From a virus (taxonomy: Duplodnaviria > Heunggongvirae > Uroviricota > Caudoviricetes): a DNA stretch of 55,149 nt. A program made the position numbers and the translations under genes. The stretch lies in IMG/VR virus record IMGVR_UViG_2531839531_000008. The stretch is one strand, 5' to 3'. Positions 1 through 55,149 of this stretch are shown in pieces (position 1 is the first letter of the stretch; each line of letters opens with the position of its first letter). The notes beneath the pieces were generated by a model, which was given only the letters and a program-made list of their open reading frames with translations, was not told the DNA's origin and did not search any database.

Positions 1-468
1 ATGCCAGATCAAAAAGAAAGTGAGAACACCAAACTCACTTGTGAAGAACAAAAGGATAATGAACTGGTTTCTCGAGTAATCGAAAATCCAGAGGTCTTAA
101 ACAGGGTTTTGGATAGTCCGCAGGTGCGGGCTATTGTTTGCCAGCATTTTCAGGGGCCTGTTCCGCCACCTTCAATGCTTAAAAAGTATGATCAACTGGT
201 GCCTGGGCTTGCAAATCGACTTGTTGAGTTGACCGAAAAAGAGCAGGCTCATCGCCATAAAACAGTGGCTGATAGCATTGATATTGCCAGAGATGGTCAA
301 ACAAAGGCTTTTTGGTTGGCAATATTGATCATCTTAGCTGCCACTGTCTTTGGCGTCATGGGGGAGACAGTTCTTGCCGGAACTCTCGTTTCAATAGATC
401 TTGTTGCATTGGTTACGGCATTTATTGTTGGAAAACATTATTCTAAGCAGGAACCTGATCAAGATTAG
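1..468 (+). CDS. DUF2335-like small membrane protein; prophage-end cargo or host gene
   Basis: 155-aa ORF from ATG at nt 1; hydrophilic N-terminus, two hydrophobic helices at C-terminus; terminator follows. Confidence 0.45.
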   Translation: MPDQKESENTKLTCEEQKDNELVSRVIENPEVLNRVLDSPQVRAIVCQHFQGPVPPPSMLKKYDQLVPGLANRLVELTEKEQAHRHKTVADSIDIARDGQTKAFWLAILIILAATVFGVMGETVLAGTLVSIDLVALVTAFIVGKHYSKQEPDQD

Positions 469-544: not shown

Positions 545-1663
545 TCAAACAACCAATTTAACCCATTCCTGACCACGAGTATCGTTATAACGATCGGTGG
601 TTGCCTGGACTTTATGTCCCAGTAATGTTTTTGTATCAATACCCTGCGCGCGGTACAGTCGTTCTGACAGGGAGCGTTGTTCATGAAATGTTGGCGGAGT
701 TTTTCCTGCTGGTGGAGTTATCCCAGCCAGATCCCGTGCTTTGGCAAAGTAGTCGCTCAGGTTGTCTTTACTCATCGGCTTTGGTTGTTTCTGGTGCCGA
801 CTATGGATTAGATATGGACTTAATATTCTGTCTCGGCACCCATCAATAACTTCTTTTAACGTTATCCCAATGGCATCACAGCGTAGTGTAAGCGGTAACG
901 CCAGACGCATTCCGGTTTTCCCTTGGGTGATATGCAGGTGTTCGTTCCATACATCTGAAAAACGCATGTGGCAAATGTCATCTCGGCGCTGACCAGTAAC
1001 AATCGCAAGAAGCATTGCGTTACGGATAAAGTGTTTTTCAGGCGTTGCGTTGTAAATTTTTTGCCAGTCTTCCAGGGTGAGCCTGGCTCTGGTTACTTTA
1101 GGGATCGGTTTACGGGTAGCCTCCGGAGGATTCCATCCAGGAGGAACTTCCCCTGCATGCTGTGCTTCTTTATAAATATCAACCCATAATCCACGATTTA
1201 CTCTCGCTGTGCTGACCATGTCTTTATCCAGCCACTCATCCAGTATTAATGCAAAGTCTCTTACTTCCAGTTCTTTCAATGGGTGGTTTCCCAGACGGGA
1301 AACCAGGTATGCAGCCATTCGGGCTTTTTCTTTGTGAGTTGTAGTTGCAATATCCCCATTTTTCAGTCGCGTGTCCTGTATTTTCAGATATCGATCAACC
1401 CATGCCTTTAATCTGATACCCCGACGTTTTGTTGCTGACGGACTTTCATCAATTTTGCGCATGAAATATTCAGCTTCTGCTGCAGCTATTCGCTGATTGG
1501 CTGTGGAAGCGATTTTTTCTGCTTTGCCTTTGTCTGTTCCGAGACCGTGAAATTTTCCAGTCACAGGGTTTTTATACTGGTAGTAAACCCTGCCAGTTCT
1601 GCGATCAAACTTTTCGTAAAGACCGGTTACGTCAGTGCTGTTTTTTCGTGGCCTCGGTGACAT
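545..1663 (-). CDS. int: tyrosine integrase, lambda Int family
   Basis: 372 aa; N-terminal arm-binding region and C-terminal catalytic region align by eye with lambda Int (HxxR...LLGH...Y); sits at the prophage end next to xis. Confidence 0.9.
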   Translation of the reverse strand: MSPRPRKNSTDVTGLYEKFDRRTGRVYYQYKNPVTGKFHGLGTDKGKAEKIASTANQRIAAAEAEYFMRKIDESPSATKRRGIRLKAWVDRYLKIQDTRLKNGDIATTTHKEKARMAAYLVSRLGNHPLKELEVRDFALILDEWLDKDMVSTARVNRGLWVDIYKEAQHAGEVPPGWNPPEATRKPIPKVTRARLTLEDWQKIYNATPEKHFIRNAMLLAIVTGQRRDDICHMRFSDVWNEHLHITQGKTGMRLALPLTLRCDAIGITLKEVIDGCRDRILSPYLIHSRHQKQPKPMSKDNLSDYFAKARDLAGITPPAGKTPPTFHEQRSLSERLYRAQGIDTKTLLGHKVQATTDRYNDTRGQEWVKLVV

Positions 1664-45735: not shown

Positions 45736-48700
45736 ATGGGTAAAGGCAGCAGTAAGGGGCATACCCCGCGCGAAGCGAAGGACAACCTGAAATCCACGCA
45801 GTTGCTGAGTGTGATTGATGCCATCAGTGAAGGGCCGATTGAAGGTCCGGTGGATGGATTAAAAAGCGTGCTGCTGAACAGTACGCCGGTGCTGGACACT
45901 GAGGGGAATACCAACATCTCCGGTGTCACGGTGGTGTTCCGGGCAGGTGAGCAGGAGCAGACTCCGCCGGAGGGATTTGAATCCTCCGGCTCCGAGACGG
46001 TGCTGGGTACGGAAGTGAAATACGACACGCCGATCACCCGGACCATCACGTCTGCAAATATCGACCGTCTGCGCTTTACCTTCGGTGTGCAGGCACTGGT
46101 GGAAACCACCTCAAAGGGGGACAGGAATCCGTCGGAAGTCCGCCTGCTGGTTCAGATACAACGTAACGGTGGCTGGGTGACAGAAAAAGACATCACCATT
46201 AAGGGCAAAACCACGTCGCAGTATCTGGCCTCAGTGGTGGTGGATAACCTGCCGCCGCGCCCGTTTAATATCCGGATGCGCAGGATGACGCCGGACAGCA
46301 CCACAGACCAGCTGCAGAACAAAACGCTCTGGTCGTCATACACCGAAATTATCGATGTGAAACAGTGCTACCCGAACACGGCACTGGTCGGCGTGCAGGT
46401 GGACTCGGAGCAGTTCGGCAGCCAGCAGGTGAGCCGTAATTATCATCTGCGCGGGCGTATTCTGCAGGTGCCGTCGAATTATAACCCGCAGACGCGGCAA
46501 TACAGCGGTATCTGGGATGGAACGTTTAAACCGGCATACAGCAACAACATGGCCTGGTGTCTGTGGGATATGCTGACCCACCCGCGCTACGGCATGGGGA
46601 AACGTCTTGGTGCGGCAGATGTGGATAAATGGGCGCTGTATGTTATCGGCCACTACTGCGACCAGTCGGTGCCGGACGGCTTTGGCAGCACGGAGCCGCG
46701 CATCACCTGTAATGCCTGGCTGACCACACAGCGCAAGGCGTGGGATGTGCTCAGCGATTTCTGCTCGGCGATGCGCTGTATGCCGGTATGGAACGGGCAG
46801 ACGCTGACGTTCGTGCAGGACCGGCCATCGGATAAGGTGTGGACCTATAACCGCAGTAATGTGGTGATGCCGGATGATGGCGCGCCGTTCCGCTACAGCT
46901 TCAGCGCCCTGAAGGACCGCCATAATGCCGTTGAGGTGAACTGGATTGACCCGAATAACGGCTGGGAGACGGCGACAGAGCTTGTGGAGGACACGCAGGC
47001 CATTGCCCGTTACGGTCGTAATGTCACGAAGATGGATGCCTTTGGCTGTACCAGCCGGGGGCAGGCACACCGCGCCGGGCTGTGGCTGATTAAAACGGAA
47101 CTGCTGGAAACGCAGACCGTGGATTTCAGCGTGGGTGCTGAAGGGCTTCGCCATGTACCGGGCGATGTCATTGAAATCTGCGATGATGACTATGCCGGTA
47201 TCAGCACCGGCGGGCGCGTGCTGGCGGTGAACAGCCGGACCCGGACGCTGACGCTCGACCGTGAAATCACGCTGCCATCCTCCGGCACCACGCTGATAAG
47301 CCTGGTTGACGGAAGTGGCAATCCGGCCAGCGTGGAGGTTCAGTCCGTCACCGACGGACTTAAGGTGAAAGTGAACCGGGTTCCTGACGGCGTTGCCGGA
47401 TACAGCGTGTGGGGGCTGAAGCTGCCGACGCTGCGCCAGCGCCTGTTCCGCTGCGTGAGTATCCGTGAGAACGACGACGGCACGTATGCCATCACCGCCG
47501 TGCAGCATGTACCGGAAAAAGAAGCCATCGTGGATAACGGGGCGCACTTTGACGGCGACCAGAGCGGCACGGTGAATGGTGTCACGCCGCCAGCAGTGCA
47601 GCACCTGACTGCCGAAGTCACCGCAGACAGCGGGGAGTATCAGGTACTGGCCCGCTGGGATACGCCGAAGGTGGTGAAGGGCGTGAGCTTCCTGCTCCGT
47701 CTGACCGTAACAGCGGATGACGGCAGTGAGCGGCTGGTCAGCACGGCCCGGACGACGGAAACCACATACCGCTTCACGCAACTGGCGCTGGGGCGGTACA
47801 CGCTGACAGTCCGGGCGGTAAATGCGTGGGGACAGCAGGGCGATCCGGCATCGGTATCTTTCCGGATTGCCGCACCGGTAGCACCGTCGCGGATTGAGCT
47901 GACGCCGGGCTATTTTCAGATAACCGCCACGCCGCATCTTGCGGTTTATGATCCGACGGTACAGTTTGAGTTCTGGTTCTCGGAAAAGCGGATTACCGAT
48001 ATCAGGCAGGTTGAAACCAGCGCGCGTTATCTTGGTACGGGGCTGTACTGGATAGCTGCCAGTATCAATATCAAACCGGGCCATAATTATTATTTTTACG
48101 TTCGCAGTGTGAACACCGTTGGCAAATCGGCATTCGTGGAGGCTGTTGGTCAGCCGAGTGATGACGCATCCGGCTATCTGGATTTTTTCAAAGGCGAGAT
48201 AGGGAAAACCCATCTGGCTCAGGAGCTGTGGACGCAGATTGATAACGGTCAGCTTGCGCCTGACCTGGCTGAAATCAGGACATCCATTACGGATGTCAGC
48301 AATGAAATCACACAGACCGTCAATAAGAAACTGGAAGACCAGAGTGCAGCGATCCAGCAGATACAGAAGGTTCAGGTTGATACAAATAATAATCTGAACA
48401 GCATGTGGGCTGTGAAGCTGCAGCAGATGCAGGACGGACGCCTTTATATTGCGGGTATCGGTGCCGGTATTGAGAACACCCCCGACGGCATGCAGAGTCA
48501 GGTGCTGCTGGCGGCAGACAGGATTGCGATGATTAATCCTGCAAATGGCAACACAAAACCGATGTTTGTTGGTCAGGGTGATCAGATATTCATGAACGAC
48601 GTGTTCCTGAAACGCCTGACGGCCCCCACCATTACCAGCGGCGGTAATCCTCCGGCATTTTCCCTGACACCGGACGGGCGGCTGACGGCGAAAAATGCCG

Positions 48701-49215
48701 ATATCAGCGGTAACGTGAATGCGAACTCCGGGACGCTCAACAACGTCACGATTAACGAGAACTGTCGGGTTCTGGGAAAATTGTCCGCCAACCAGATTGA
48801 AGGCGATCTCGTTAAAACAGTGGGCAAAGCTTTCCCCCGGGACTCCCGTGCACCGGAACGGTGGCCATCAGGGACCATCACCGTCAGGGTTTATGACGAT
48901 CAGCCGTTTGACCGGCAGATTGTTATTCCGGCGGTGGCATTCAGCGGCGCTAAACATGAGCGGGAGAATAACGATATTTATTCGTCATGCCGCCTGATAG
49001 TACGGAAAAACGGTGCTGAAATTTATAACCGTACCGCGCTGGATAATACGCTGATTTACAGTGGTGTTATTGATATGCCAGCTGGTCGCGGCCACATGAC
49101 GCTGGAGTTTTCGGTGTCAGCATGGCTGGTAAATAACTGGTATCCCACAGCAAGTATCAGCGATTTGCTGGTTGTGGTGATGAAGAAAGCCACCGCAGGC
49201 ATCAGTATCAGCTGA
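45736..49215 (+). CDS. host specificity/central tail fibre protein J
   Basis: 1159 aa, lambda gpJ size and position. Confidence 0.85.
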
Positions 49216-49282: not shown

Positions 49283-49882
49283 ATGCGTAAAGTTTGTGCA
49301 GCCATTTTGTCCGCAGCCATCTGTCTGGCCGTATCCGGTGCACCTGCATGGGCGTCTGAGCAGCAGGCCACACTGAGCGCAGGGTATCTTCATGCCCGTA
49401 CGAACGCTCCCGGCAGCGATAATCTGAACGGGATTAACGTGAAATACCGTTATGAGTTTACGGATACGCTGGGGCTGGTGACGTCATTCAGCTATGCAGG
49501 AGACAAGAATCGCCAGCTGACCCGTTACAGCGATACCCGCTGGCATGAAGATTCCGTGCGTAACCGCTGGTTCAGCGTGATGGCGGGGCCGTCTGTGCGC
49601 GTGAATGAATGGTTCAGCGCGTATGCGATGGCGGGTATGGCTTACAGCCGTGTTTCGACTTTCTCCGGGGATTATCTCCGCGTAACTGACAACAAGGGGA
49701 AAACGCACGATGTGCTGACCGGAAGTGATGACGGTCGCCACAGCAACACGTCTCTGGCGTGGGGGGCTGGCGTGCAGTTTAACCCGACCGAATCCGTGGC
49801 CATTGATGTCGCTTATGAAGGCTCCGGCAGTGGTTACTGGCGCACTGACGGTTTCATCGTGGGTGTCGGTTATAAATTCTGA
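49283..49882 (+). CDS. lom: Lom/Ail/PagC-family outer membrane beta-barrel protein
   Basis: 199 aa with signal peptide, ends in aromatic residue (GYKF). Confidence 0.8.
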   Translation: MRKVCAAILSAAICLAVSGAPAWASEQQATLSAGYLHARTNAPGSDNLNGINVKYRYEFTDTLGLVTSFSYAGDKNRQLTRYSDTRWHEDSVRNRWFSVMAGPSVRVNEWFSAYAMAGMAYSRVSTFSGDYLRVTDNKGKTHDVLTGSDDGRHSNTSLAWGAGVQFNPTESVAIDVAYEGSGSGYWRTDGFIVGVGYKF

Positions 49883-49940: not shown

Positions 49941-52900
49941 GTGAATATGGCAGTAAAGATTTCAGGTGTACTGAAAGACGGCACAGGAAAACCGGTACAG
50001 AACTGCACAATCCAGCTGAAAGCAAAACGTAACAGCACCACGGTGGTGGTGAACACGCTGGCCTCAGAAAATCCGGATGAAGCCGGGCGTTACAGCATGG
50101 ACGTTGAGTACGGTCAGTACAGCGTTATTCTGTTGGTGGAAGGATTCCCGCCGTCACATGCCGGGACCATCACCGTGTATGAAGATTCCCGACCCGGTAC
50201 GCTGAATGATTTTCTCGGTGCCATGACGGAGGATGATGCCCGTCCGGAGGCACTGCGCCGTTTTGAGCTGATGGTGGAAGAGGTGGCGCGTAACGCGTCC
50301 GCGGTGGCACAGAACACGGCAGCCGCGAAGAAGTCAGCCAGCGATGCCGGCACATCAGCCCGTGAGGCGGCAACCCATGCGACTGATGCTGCAGGCTCAG
50401 CACGTGCAGCCAGCACATCAGCCGGGCAGGCCGCGACGTCGGCTCAGTCAGCGTCTTCCAGCGCAGGAACGGCATCAACAAAGGCTACTGAAGCATCAAA
50501 AAGTGCTGCCGCTGCAGAGTCCTCAAAAAGCGCGGCGGCTACCAGTGCCGGTGCGGCGAAAACGTCAGAAACGAATGCCGCAGCGTCACAACAATCAGCA
50601 GCCACTTCTGCATCCACCGCGACCACGAAAGCGTCAGAAGCTGCCACCTCAGCCCGGGATGCGGCGGCCTCAAAAGAGGCAGCGAAATCATCAGAAACGA
50701 ACGCATCCTCGAGCGCCAGTAGTGCCGCTTCCTCGGCAACGGCGGCAGGAAATTCCGCGAAGGCGGCAAAAACGTCCGAGGCGAACGCCAGGTCTTCTGA
50801 GACGGCTGCGGGACAGAGCGCCTCAGCTGCGGCAGGCTCAAAAACAGCGGCTGCGTCGTCTGCCAGTACCGCGTCAACAAGTGCCGGGCAGGCCTCAGCC
50901 AGTGCCACCGCCGCCGGAAAATCGGCAGAAAGTGCCGCATCGTCTGCTTCAACAGCCACAACGAAGGCTGGCGAAGCCACTGAACAGGCCAGCGCAGCAG
51001 CGAGGTCAGCTTCCGCAGCGAAGACATCCGAAACGAACGCGAAAGCGTCGGAAACCAGCGCAGAATCCTCAAAAACGGCTGCCGCATCGTCCGCCAGTTC
51101 GGCGGCGTCATCGGCATCATCTGCGTCTGCTTCAAAAGATGAGGCGACCAGACAGGCGTCAGCAGCGAGGGGCAGCGCCACGACGGCATCCACGAAAGCA
51201 ACAGAGGCGGCAGGCAGTGCGACGGCAGCATCTCAGAGCAAAACTGCTGCTGAATCCGCTGCGACCCGTGCGGAAGCTGCTGCTGATCGTGCTGAAGAGA
51301 TTGCCGGTGCAGTTGCGATGGAAGACGCAAGCCTTACAACTAAAGGTGTTGTGAAACTTAGCAGTGCTGTTGATAGCACCAGTGAATCGCTGGCCGCAAC
51401 GCCAAAAGCAGTTAAAGCAGCCAATGACAATGCGAATAGCAGGGTGCCATCTAACCGAAAAGTTAACGGTAAAGCACTGACTGCGGATATCACTTTAACC
51501 GCCGCGCATGTGGCTGCTTTTGCCAGAAGGGCAACGGATACGTATGCCGATGCGGATGGTGGCGTTCCCTGGAATGCCGAATCAGGCGCTTACAATGTCA
51601 CCCGCTCTGGCGACAGCTATATTCTGGTTAACTTCTATACCGGAGTCGGAAGTTGCCGGACCCTGCAGATGAAGGCGCATTACAGAAATGGTGGTCTGTT
51701 CTACCGTTCTTCAAGAGACGGTTATGGTTTTGAAAGTGGTTGGGAGCAGGTTTACACGACTGGATTTAGACCTCAGCCGGCTGATATAAACGCACCAACC
51801 GCTGCCGCCGGATGGTTAAATAGTGGTAACGGAACAGCATTTACGACTGCTCAGTTTATAACGTGGCTAAATAATCAGGGTGCATTTTCAAACAAATATT
51901 GGATTGCACGGTGCTCATGGGCTTACGCCAACAATAATTATATAGACGACACTGGTTGCGGTAGGATCGATCTATCTGGTTCCGTGATTGAGGTGTTTAG
52001 TAATAAGGCAACAAGCAATTACACTATTCGTGTTACAACGACAACAACATCGGGTCATGGTGGTGTTAATAATGCGGAATTTATTTATGTGTACAATGGA
52101 AGTGGTTATGCACCAGGCTGGCGTCGTTCTTATAACACCAGAAACAAACCAACAGCTTCTGATGTAGGAGCATTACCGCTTTCAGGTGGCACATTATCTG
52201 GGGGGGTAACGTCTTCTGGTGAGATCGTTTCAAAATATGCAAATGGTTTCCGCATTGCTTACGGTAACTATGGGTTCTTTATCCGTAATGACGGCGGCAG
52301 CACATATTTCATGCTAACAGCATCAGGAGATACGTTAGGTTCATGGAACAGTTTGCGACCGATTACAATTAATAATACCAGCGGTGTTGTGTCCATTGGT
52401 AATGGACTAAATGTTACTGGTGGCGTTAATGGTAGTTTGAACGGTAATGCTTCAACAGCTACGAAGTTGCAAACAGCGAGAAACATCAATGGTGTTAAGT
52501 TTGATGGCTCAGGCGATATCAACATTAATACATTGGTATCTCGTGGCCGAGTTACGGCGTTAAGCGGCTCTACTCAAGGCACTGCTGGCATTCAAATGTA
52601 CGAGGCGTACAACAATAGCTACCCGACCATGTATGGCAACGTATTGCACATGAAAGGTGCGAGTGCTGCTGGTGAGGGCGAGTTGCTTATTGGCTGGAGT
52701 GGTACGAGCGGTGCACATGCGCCAGTTTTCATTCGCTCACGAAGAGATAACACAGATGCGGCATGGTCGCCGTGGGCGCAGCTTTACACCTCGGCTCATC
52801 CTCCTGCAGAGTTTTATCCAGTCGGTGCACCAATCCCGTGGCCATCAGATACCGTTCCGTTTGGTTATGCCCTGATGCATGGGCAGACTTTTGACAAATC

Positions 52901-53519
52901 TGCATACCCGAAACTTGCAGCCGCTTATCCGTCAGGCGTGATCCCTGATATGCGTGGCTGGACGATTAAGGGCAAACCTGCCAGTGGTCGAGCCGTATTA
53001 TCTCAGGAACAGGACGGCATTAAATCGCACACCCACAGCGCCAGCGCATCCAGTACGGATTTGGGGACGAAAACCACATCGTCGTTTGATTACGGCACTA
53101 AATCCACGAATAACACCGGGGCGCATACGCACAGTCTGAGTGGCTCTACGGGGTCTGCCGGTGTTCATACTCATGGTAATGGTATTCGTTGGCCAGGAGG
53201 CGGCGGTTCTGCGTTAGCATTTTATGATGGCGGTGGGTTCACTTATGTCCAGAATTCACAGTATCAAGTAAGCCCGGAGACTTCTTCCTATAGATCGTAT
53301 TATCAACGTATTCAGACACAGTCAGCAGGTGCTCATACCCACTCGCTGTCTGGTACTGCAGCAAGTTCTGGCGCACATGCACATACTGTAGGTATTGGTG
53401 CGCATACGCACTCCGTTGCGATTGGTTCACATGGACACACCATCACCGTTAACGCTGCGGGTAACGCGGAAAACACCGTCAAAAACATCGCATTTAACTA
53501 TATTGTGAGGCTTGCATAA
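49941..53519 (+). CDS. stf: side tail fibre protein Stf with Ala/Ser/Thr-rich tandem repeats and GxHxH repeats
   Basis: 1192 aa; long low-complexity repeat tract 50280-51300; C-terminal GAHTHS repeats. Confidence 0.8.
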
Positions 53520-54103
53520 TGGCATTCAGAATGAGTGAACAAGCACGGACCATAAAAATTTATAATCTGCTGGCCGGAACTAATGAATTTATTGGTGAAG
53601 GTGACGCATATATTCCGCCTCATACAGGTCTGCCAGCAAACAGTACCGATATTGCACCACCAGATATTCCTGCTGGCTTTGTGGCTGTTTTCAACAGTGA
53701 TGAGGCATCGTGGCATCTCGTTGAAGACCATCGGGGTAAAACGGTTTATGACGTAGCTTCCGGCGACGCGTTATTTATTTCTGAACTCGGCTTGTTACCG
53801 GAAAATGTTACCTGGTTATCGCCGGAAGGGGAGTTTCAGAAGTGGAACGGCACAGCCTGGGTGAAGGATACGGAAGCAGAAAAACTGTTCCAGATCCGGG
53901 AGGCGGAAGAAACAAAAAACAACCTGATGCAGGTAGCCAGTGAGCATATTGCGCCGCTTCAGGATGCTGCAGATCTGGAAATTGCAACGGAGGAAGAAAC
54001 CTCATTGCTGGAAGCCTGGAAGAAGTATCGGGTGTTGCTGAACCGTGTTGATACATCAACTGCACCTGATATTGAGTGGCCTACGAACCCTGTCAGGGAG
54101 TAA
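53519..54103 (+). CDS. tfa: tail fibre assembly protein Tfa
   Basis: 194 aa, ATGA-coupled to stf. Confidence 0.75.
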
Positions 54104-54116
54104 TCATTGGGGTTAT

Positions 54117-54166
54117 GCCGCAGCACGTCTTAAGCAAAAACGTGCTGCGGTTGGATGCTATTTTTT
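54117..54166. terminator. bidirectional terminator between tfa and convergent methyltransferase gene
   Basis: 10-bp perfect stem ccgcagcacg/cgtgctgcgg, T-run on plus strand, A-run before stem. Confidence 0.6.
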
Positions 54167-54826
54167 CCCTGAAGCGGAAAACATTACTACAGTACCTTGA
54201 ACCTTGGTTTTAACATTCTCGAAATGCTCTGAGAGTATATGTGTTAAGCCTTCTTCGGAATCTTTTGTGTTTGAAAAGATGCCTTTCTGATTGTAAATGC
54301 GCATCAGTTTTTGACCGAAGCTATTGTGCACAACTCCATCGCCAAGAATTGTGGCTCCGTATAGAGTTCCATCGTCAGTTAAGGCCTGCGCCGCATTGCG
54401 TATTACACAGCTTTTTGTAGATATATTTCCAGGCAGGCAGTGAAGAAGGTAAAACATGGAAATGGAATCAAATTGACCATGTAACGCCGCGGGATAAGGT
54501 TCAAAAACATCATGGCTAATTTTATGTTTAATTTTTGATTCCCCAGCCCTTGTAGATGCCGCGTTCAGGCTAGCTTCGTTCAAATCCATTAAAGATATCA
54601 GACTACTCTCAGGTACGTGAGTAAGGTAAAACCCAGTTCCAACACCAATATCCAGATGGTTGTTACCTAAATGTTCCAGAAAGTGTGGAAGAAGGTGTTC
54701 CTTTGTAGGACATCCCCATGCAAGCCGATTTGATACTCCCAAAACCCACCAGTCATAAAGCTTTAGGGTAAGTGGTGTGTAAATTTTAGCCCCATCATCT
54801 GTGTTTTTTTTCATTGATTTCACCAT
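54158..54826 (-). CDS. class I SAM-dependent methyltransferase, moron (resembles e14 YmfD as recalled)
   Basis: 222 aa; motif I DIGVGTGF; AT-rich; convergent to tail fibre genes. Confidence 0.6.
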   Translation of the reverse strand: MVKSMKKNTDDGAKIYTPLTLKLYDWWVLGVSNRLAWGCPTKEHLLPHFLEHLGNNHLDIGVGTGFYLTHVPESSLISLMDLNEASLNAASTRAGESKIKHKISHDVFEPYPAALHGQFDSISMFYLLHCLPGNISTKSCVIRNAAQALTDDGTLYGATILGDGVVHNSFGQKLMRIYNQKGIFSNTKDSEEGLTHILSEHFENVKTKVQGTVVMFSASGKK

Positions 54827-54882
54827 GTTATAGTTTTATTTGTGAATTAAATCAATTATGGCGATGAATTACAAGGGGTTAA

Positions 54883-55149
54883 ATGCTGCCGCAGCATAGC
54901 GATATTGAAATAGCCTGGTATGCTTCGATACAGCAGGAGCCGAATGGCTGGAAGACCGTCACCACACAGTTCTACATCCAGGAATTCAGTGAGTATATTG
55001 CGCCACTGCAGGATGCTGTAGATCTGGAAATCGCAACGGAGGAAGAAAGATCGTTGCTGGAGGCATGGAATAAATATCGGGTATTGTTGAATCGTGTTGA
55101 TACATCAACTGCACCTGATATTGAGTGGCCGACTTCACCTGCAGAGTAA
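54883..55149 (+). CDS. short Tfa-like protein sharing only the C-terminal 45 aa with tfa
   Basis: 88-aa ORF ending in TAA at window edge; C-terminus [43 protein letters not shown] shared with 53519-54103. Confidence 0.5.

Follow-up and report, generated by a model that had tools for sequence, protein, structure and literature searches.

The window analysed here, i.e. the whole 55,149-nucleotide stretch of IMG/VR virus record IMGVR_UViG_2531839531_000008, is a whole lambdoid prophage whose last 1.6 kb are filled by three open reading frames (ORFs): (i) tfa, a complete tail fibre assembly gene; (ii) a minus-strand gene for a class I S-adenosylmethionine (SAM)-dependent methyltransferase; and (iii) a short ORF of 88 amino acids (aa), orthologous to tfaX of Escherichia coli K-12. 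This module is very probably the right-arm end of a lambdoid prophage inserted at the 3' end of potB, in which a host-derived methyltransferase gene is carried as cargo within a mobile cassette bracketed by tfa sequence. The original prediction, made from the DNA letters alone, had drawn the same layout of tfa, minus-strand methyltransferase gene and short ORF, and the three ORFs are present as it placed them.

The duplicated tfa segment and the chimeric ORF

The tfa gene (53519..54103, plus strand; 194 aa) is of the lambda type, as indicated by Pfam, by PHROG 105 and by alignment to lambda. Its product matches Caudo_TAP over profile positions 1-130 of 131 (152 bits) and PHROG 105 with E = 5e-100; furthermore, window positions 53421-54152, which comprise tfa and the hairpin downstream of it, are 94.6% identical to lambda. 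A repeat search found the 3' coding segment of tfa (copy 1, 53927..54084, plus strand) again within the 88-aa ORF (54883..55149, plus strand; its stop codon coincides with the end of the window), where it forms the Tfa-derived part (copy 2, 54976..55133, plus strand). The repeat is direct and 158 nt long, with 87% identity and a spacing of 1,049 nt, and 48/60 residues (80%) are identical between Tfa and the 88-aa protein. When the 158-nt repeat was compared by BLAST with the whole window, two copies were found, both direct, with no inverted or third copy and only a 20-nt chance match on the opposite strand (E = 0.027); hence, chance can be excluded as an explanation for the repeat.

Judging from homology on both sides of the joint, the 88-aa ORF is chimeric, with a head from PHROG 3893 (~33 codons; 54883..54981, plus strand), which is not tfa, and a tfa 3' fragment as its remainder. 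Residues 31-87 correspond to profile positions 75-131 of Caudo_TAP (PF02413; 89 bits), while profile positions 1-74, i.e. the variable fibre-binding N-domain, are absent; accordingly, the Prokaryotic Genome Annotation Pipeline (PGAP) flags the ORF as incomplete, with its N-terminus missing. In PHROGs it constitutes an 88-aa family of its own (PHROG 2341; E = 5e-61, positions 1-88 of 88). The original prediction had attributed to this short gene the C-terminal 45 residues of Tfa: a Tfa C-terminal part is indeed common to both, but it spans ~52-56 residues, and the first ~33 codons are not Tfa-derived.

The origin of the head can be read from Citrobacter freundii (loci L018/L020), in which homology spans the methyltransferase gene, the spacer next to it and the first ~29-33 codons of the ORF, and stops at 54969-54985, precisely where Tfa homology starts. 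The divergent ORF of C. freundii has 79-80 aa, the same N-terminus and no tfa part, and matches PHROG 3893 at E = 8e-38. Between this ORF and the head, 76/87 nt are identical, the differences being seven synonymous (Sd 7) and four non-synonymous (Nd 4). Read in this frame, the ratio of non-synonymous to synonymous differences (pN/pS) comes to 0.15, against values near or above 1 for the two alternative frames, which marks the head as that of a once-real gene. The breakpoint of the chimera lies at 54978-54986, within a CAGG(A/T)A microhomology common to the three sequences.

A direct repeat with a 1,049-nt spacing would also be expected from a simple tandem duplication of tfa, with the methyltransferase gene inserted between the copies and the second copy decayed at its 5' end. 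Such an origin is very unlikely, as (i) the first third of the second ORF has its homologue in an unrelated gene, found beside the methyltransferase gene in Citrobacter, where any tfa part is missing; and (ii) no complete tfa lies upstream of the cassette in phage 2G7b, in strain 98223 and in locus L028.

The chimeric tfaX is best regarded as a decaying by-product and not as a working chaperone. It is frameshifted in phage 2G7b and in strain 98223, and its C-terminal variants (82, 88-89 and 101 aa) change with the downstream sequence. The opposite view would be that the ORF encodes a working mini-Tfa, in which the C-terminal helical (trimerisation) domain has received a new N-terminus and might assist or poison fibre assembly, for instance that of a superinfecting phage. 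Several features are in keeping with it: a good Shine-Dalgarno sequence (AAGGGG, 5 nt before the ATG), the frequency of the 88-89-aa form, the synonymous bias of substitutions in both halves, the family of its own in PHROGs, and the description of the Tfa C-terminal domain as the conserved trimerising part (PMC9608196). Nevertheless, a mini-Tfa would lack the fibre-binding N-domain, is truncated or frameshifted in K-12 as well as in 2G7b and strain 98223, and takes its C-terminus from whatever lies downstream; the synonymous bias, for its part, can be a legacy of the parental genes and of gene conversion. Moreover, the -10 hexamer given for the K-12 tfaX promoter in a study based on genomic systematic evolution of ligands by exponential enrichment (SELEX) overlaps the ATG in the K-12 sequence (PMC3946193). 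A functional mini-Tfa is thus considered unlikely. In any case, the annotation "tfaX / tail fiber assembly protein" is misleading for what is a PHROG 3893 head joined to a tfa tail.

Genes of PHROG 3893 are common just downstream of fibre genes in temperate siphophages of Klebsiella, Erwinia, Cronobacter, Pantoea and E. coli, often beside DinI or ahead of a UmuD-like gene and once beside a DNA invertase, in surroundings that look like a cluster of SOS-related cargo. In Erwinia phages, the gene is annotated as "DNA polymerase V".

The repeat has a further consequence for annotation. The Rfam family IS009 (RF02111; gene/small RNA, sRNA) matches both copies on the coding strand, (i) at 53862-54060 (plus strand) with 225 bits versus a gathering score of 117; and (ii) at 54906-55109 (plus strand) with 112.5 bits, just below the gathering score, the match ending at the cassette boundary (55107-55109). 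Because substitutions in the segment are biased to synonymous ones (proportion of synonymous differences, pS, 0.41; of non-synonymous differences, pN, 0.076), IS009 appears to model a conserved coding fragment and not a structured RNA. Matches of the family on this coding repeat are a reason for caution with sRNA counts from genomes rich in prophages.

Attachment site and recombination of the cassette

The closest genome (99.7% identity) has potB 233 bp past the 88-aa ORF, with potA, pepT and phoQP next in line. Genomes with an empty site align only from ~250 bp beyond the window end, within the 3' end of potB, so that the window ends ~250 bp short of the prophage/host junction. The module is, therefore, the right end of the prophage proximal to the attachment (att) site, the equivalent of the lambda b region. 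Furthermore, the junction of methyltransferase gene, tfa fragment and potB is present in 821/5,426 complete E. coli genomes; potB is the attachment site for this type of prophage.

The prophage of strain VG48B2 (locus L016), likewise at potB, offers the plain state of the same end: stf and tfa are followed by the same 233-bp flank and potB, without the methyltransferase gene. The ~250 bp past the window end, positions 9751-10001 of locus L001, are identical to it at 245/250 positions. Comparison with this prophage establishes that copy 2 of the repeat is a mosaic: positions 54976-55095 are of the cassette type (119/120 identical to phage PhiR26_1, which diverges afterwards), and from 55096 onwards the sequence is 100% identical to the tfa tail of the methyltransferase-free prophage, to which the last ~14-18 codons of the 88-aa ORF thus correspond. 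Conversely, the tfa 3' segment of VG48B2 is almost the same as copy 1 of the window from 53927 to about 54066 and then equals the tail of copy 2, the rest of tfa being about 96-97% identical between both. The breakpoints of copy 2 lie inside the tfa 3' homology, and the length that separates the plain from the cassette-bearing state is precisely the spacing of the repeat, 1,049 nt; homologous recombination inside this shared 3' segment of tfa can turn one state into the other. It may proceed by unequal crossover of a donor tfaX with a resident tfa or by deletion between the repeats, in either direction.

On its left side, the methyltransferase gene begins exactly where ea47 begins in lambda. 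The joint between the tfa unit and the methyltransferase unit falls at ~54146-54157: homology of the lambda type ends at 54152, homology to Citrobacter begins at 54146, and the cassette of locus L028 begins at 54118. This last position is the start of a hairpin (54118..54150; 14-bp stem, an inverted repeat with 93% complementarity) which lies between the convergent tfa and methyltransferase genes and is the terminator-like element of lambda tfa. Its folding energy is -26.3 kcal/mol on the plus strand and -25.6 kcal/mol on the minus strand (z = -4.0 and -4.6, respectively), and a U-run follows it on the plus strand only, there being none on the methyltransferase strand. A consensus scan for promoters and terminators stayed at background level (3 found vs 2.8 expected) and did not list the 54118-54150 hairpin among its terminators. 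Two annotations touch the hairpin: (i) in related genomes, PGAP calls a 45-aa "hypothetical protein" (WP_001309429.1) at 54076-54213 (plus strand), which reaches over the stop codon of tfa, the hairpin and the methyltransferase 3' end and is probably a spurious call; and (ii) the hairpin region 54086-54149 (plus strand) has a weak match to Rfam CssrB (Shigella sRNA B; 29.6 bits vs a gathering score of 76, E = 0.0012), which probably reflects merely a common prophage hairpin.

The cassette has spread over phage types. It is found in P2-like prophages at smpB/ssrA, in the order baseplate J, gpI, fibre, tfa, methyltransferase, tfaX and DinI; it also adjoins gpD; it occurs after a tailspike gene without tfa, where homology begins at the hairpin (54118); and, in 2G7b and strain 98223, it stands behind different fibre genes with only a remnant of the tfa tail upstream. 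This distribution speaks for a tfa recombination hotspot and rules out an invertible segment. In some genomes, a DinI pseudogene is annotated near this prophage end; in strain 98223, it lies between the methyltransferase gene and the tfa fragment.

The alternative of an invertible segment deserves mention, as duplications of tail fibre and tfa genes are typical of such systems (Mu G, P1 C, e14 P type) and the PHROG 3893 gene adjoins a DNA invertase in phage HK225. According to it, the two tfa copies would be the leftover of such a segment, with the invertase located just past the window. However, both copies are direct, with no inverted copy in the window; between the 88-aa ORF and potB in the closest genome there are 233 bp and no invertase; and copy 2 carries a foreign N-terminus, with no fibre C-terminal exon upstream of it. 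A segment of the Gin/Cin/Pin type at this locus is refuted by the direct-only copies and by the missing invertase before potB, and this explanation retains practically no probability. The original prediction had favoured recombination at a tail-fibre-assembly hotspot over inversion and had suggested a search beyond the window for an invertase and inverted repeats; both the search and the mosaic structure of copy 2 within the tfa 3' homology bear it out.

Returning to recombination of a tfa-bracketed cassette, the following course of events would account for the present arrangement. The methyltransferase gene would be cargo of host origin, from a family of stand-alone chromosomal enzymes of Enterobacterales, and would have entered E. 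coli temperate phages as a small divergent unit, with the methyltransferase gene on one strand and, on the other, an AT-rich promoter spacer and the small PHROG 3893 gene. An illegitimate join at the CAGGAA microhomology would then have placed the ~33 leading codons of this small gene ahead of the ~50 final codons of a tfa gene, giving rise to the chimeric tfaX and to a cassette flanked by tfa 3' sequence (tfa tail and hairpin on the left, tfa fragment on the right). With tfa 3' sequence on both flanks, homologous recombination could bring the cassette in, remove it or transfer it between phages whose fibres differ. The window itself would owe its state to a crossover at 55096-55107, by which tfaX of the cassette type acquired the tfa tail and the att-proximal flank that characterise potB prophages. 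Of all this, the anatomy, the breakpoints, the polymorphism and the purifying selection on the enzyme are directly demonstrated.

The methyltransferase, its predicted control region and its distribution

The methyltransferase gene (54158..54826, minus strand; 222 aa as called) is an intact, full-length orthologue of K-12 ybcY (99.1% nucleotide identity) and belongs to PHROG 2132 (E = 8e-157, positions 1-218 of 218). As the original prediction held, it is AT-rich (G+C 0.41) and encodes a class I SAM-dependent enzyme: the product passes the Pfam gathering scores of Methyltransf_12 (PF08242, 37.6 bits; cut-off 30), Methyltransf_23 (PF13489, 28.8; 27), Methyltransf_25 (PF13649, 27.7; 27) and Methyltransf_11 (PF08241, 24.6; 21.2). 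SAM motif I, (D/E)xGxGxG, is present as L58-D59-I-G61-V-G63-T-G65, and D59, G61, G63 and G65, like the acidic D81 that closes strand 2, show no or almost no variation among 46 homologues; the protein also has the seven-stranded alpha/beta fold of the class. Its true start is probably M5 (ATG at 54814), which would give a protein of 218 aa, because M1 is not conserved in the orthologues, M5 is invariant and PHROG 2132 begins at M5. GGTGA stands 5 nt upstream of this codon. The ratio of non-synonymous to synonymous substitution rates (dN/dS) is 0.1-0.2 in every informative comparison; by this measure, the gene is under purifying selection.

Among the listed top fold matches, the closest are small-molecule and lipid methyltransferases, with flat scores. 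The product would be a working enzyme, with about an even chance that it acts on a small molecule or a lipid. In line with the original prediction, no substrate could be assigned to it. NCBIfam returned only sub-threshold matches to CpaM and RquA (17 bits vs cut-offs of 175-180); a sequence search of PDB returned only weak matches to JHAMT and UbiG (E ~5e-5 to 1e-3), even with a 46-sequence profile; BFVD gave nothing specific; and the neighbourhoods of distant orthologues, monocistronic and with unrelated neighbours, contained no hint of a pathway. In the literature, ybcY and tfaX have received genome-scale mentions only: promoter and H-NS SELEX, the context of ompT, and a ybcY deletion, which had no effect on Hha toxicity. 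No paper was found that treats a methyltransferase moron together with lambdoid tail fibre assembly.

A phage-borne methyltransferase might be thought to methylate DNA (or RNA) and thereby shield phage DNA from restriction. This role is given very little probability here: the protein is a single domain of 218 aa without a target-recognition domain and without motif IV, (D/N/S)PP(Y/F/W); no DNA methylase is found among its listed top fold matches; the sole match among PADLOC defence profiles is marginal (mad2, E = 0.003, 14 bits); and the orthologues are lone chromosomal genes in non-phage contexts.

The methyltransferase gene and the 88-aa ORF diverge from an AT-rich spacer of 56 bp (54827..54882; G+C 0.27) with a promoter-like site on the minus strand: a -35 hexamer TTGTAA (54874-54869), a 17-nt gap and a -10 hexamer TTTAAT (54851-54846). 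Both hexamers are retained in orthologues from Salmonella, Enterobacter and C. braakii, where gene identity is only 69-80%, and this conservation makes them the predicted promoter of the methyltransferase gene itself. The consensus scan pointed to a different, weak site (54882-54855). For the K-12 ybcY/tfaX spacer, genomic SELEX detected constitutive sigma-70 promoters in both directions and H-NS binding (PMC3946193); the study gives another hexamer pair, TTGATT-17-TATAAC (PMC3946193), which falls close against the coding start in the K-12 and window sequences. In the lysogen, the enzyme would be expressed from its own, H-NS-silenced sigma-70 promoter.

At a threshold of at least 95% identity, the methyltransferase gene is present in 3,832/5,426 complete E. 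coli genomes (71%), with up to 4 copies per genome, and the whole 1.75-kb arrangement (at least 80% covered) in 1,495 of them. Copies of the cassette in E. coli number ~4,900. Homologues at 56-90% identity extend across Enterobacterales: those of Salmonella, Yersinia and Enterobacter are lone genes in ordinary chromosomal settings, and those of Citrobacter lie amid prophage debris (DinI, sodC). Among 50,697 phage records, the protein occurs in only 15, all of them E. coli phages and all at least 98.6% identical, as would be expected if a host-type gene had been captured recently. Wherever its E. coli surroundings were inspected, the gene resides in a prophage or a prophage remnant, and for this reason it behaves as cargo and not as a core gene. 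The original prediction had named a ubiquitous core gene and a right flank of host chromosome as the findings that would speak against it; the right flank does lead into host chromosome (potB), but the gene, present in 71% of genomes and in prophages or remnants wherever inspected, does not behave as a core gene.

A moron, in the Hendrix-type definition, is an extra gene unit in a prophage. Here, the same place is empty of the methyltransferase gene in VG48B2 and occupied by ea47 in lambda, and base composition departs from that of the neighbours (G+C 0.41 in the gene and 0.27 in the spacer vs 0.50 in the window and 0.53 in stf). Both features uphold the moron status originally assigned to the gene, which also lies on the opposite strand and has conserved promoter-like hexamers upstream, a candidate promoter of its own.

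Neighbouring features, significance and known counterparts

Elsewhere in the window, the prophage contains a lambda-type integrase gene (545-1663, minus strand) at one end and, at the other, J (45736-49215), lom (49283-49882) and stf (49941-53519). At the left edge, outside the integrase gene, an ORF at 1-468 (plus strand) encodes a DUF2335 protein (a predicted membrane protein) and is possibly a further cargo gene on the attL side. The stf gene encodes 1,192 aa from a GTG start and includes an Ala/Ser/Thr-rich repetitive stretch (~50250-51300) with a G+C of 0.60-0.64 and a strong AT skew; its orthologue in the closest genome is an incomplete pseudogene according to PGAP. In Salmonella phage SPF_0923 (ON032529.1; locus L005, 3417-5756), sitD, sitC and sitB, which encode a host-type manganese/iron transporter, directly follow tfa, so that this record probably includes either bacterial flank or another set of cargo.

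The module is already known: annotation of K-12 and of thousands of genomes includes this DLP12-type tfa-ybcY-tfaX arrangement, and it is textbook behaviour for phages to form mosaic joints where tfa is conserved, at its 3' end. What is added here is the chimeric origin of tfaX, the exact breakpoints, the spread of the cassette over phage types, and the host-family origin of the enzyme together with the selection acting on it. Little is at stake for genome biology, and the finding is a real but ordinary one. The enzyme, in any case, is conserved, with an intact gene in the majority of E. coli strains as well as in viable temperate phages and with chromosomal orthologues in Enterobacterales, and it makes a cheap target for substrate discovery because K-12, whose ybcY is a pseudogene, is a natural null. 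On a bolder and rather improbable reading, the intact YbcY-family enzyme could be a lysogenic-conversion factor whose substrate is a toxic small molecule or, in the manner of PmtA, the head group of a membrane lipid, and/or TfaX could interfere, as a dominant-negative trimerisation domain, with the fibres that incoming phages assemble. If this were true, some 70% of E. coli strains would have their envelope or chemical tolerance altered by the enzyme, which would have escaped work on K-12, since K-12 has the pseudogene only.

The original prediction had proposed a comparison with the ymfD context of e14. Both YmfD and the present protein are putative SAM methyltransferases of ~220 aa borne by K-12-type prophages, but BLASTP of the 222-aa protein against YmfD gave no matches, and ymfD has ymfE, lit and intE for neighbours, at the opposite end of e14. 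In K-12, the module actually corresponds to tfaD-ybcY-tfaX of DLP12 (b0561-b0563), a counterpart that the original prediction had not recognised, with the same gene order and the same strands; DLP12 is 96.5% identical in DNA to window positions 53665-55129, and the spacer differs at one base. Unlike the intact methyltransferase gene of the window, ybcY of K-12 is a frameshifted pseudogene; likewise, the first 61 residues of K-12 TfaX are identical to those of the 88-aa ORF, but a stop at codon 62 interrupts the former, while the ORF is intact here. In DLP12 the module is followed by appY and ompT, whereas here ~250 bp lead to the attachment junction at potB.

Among phages, coliphages 2G7b, ev243, PhiR26_1, PhiR29, PhiR30 and PhiR49, which are viable and temperate, have a methyltransferase protein 99.1-99.5% identical to that of the window, and the same cassette from the hairpin to 55107; beyond it, their tfaX continues into b-region sequence (as a 101-aa or frameshifted ORF), followed by a hydrolase gene, ompT and int. 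The PHROG 3893 small gene also has its counterparts: the leading ~33-36 residues of the 88-aa ORF come from the Citrobacter member, and HK225 gp28 (locus L029, 3004-3303) and Cronobacter phiES15 gp51 (gp51-gp52 at locus L031, 3004-3572) are more distant relatives (44-54% identical). As with the 88-aa ORF, these genes lie downstream of fibre genes and diverge from a minus-strand cargo gene (DinI in HK225); the full gene, however, has 79-99 aa, with a different C-terminal two-thirds and often a UmuD-like gene after it, while here only the 5' end is kept. Finally, the module resembles the start of the b region of lambda (stf-tfa-hairpin-ea47; cf. the lambdoid morons lom and bor) in its lambda-type tfa, the same hairpin and an AT-rich accessory gene on the opposite strand, and differs from it in that the cargo consists of the methyltransferase gene and the chimeric ORF instead of ea47 and in that the cassette has a tfa-derived right arm of its own.

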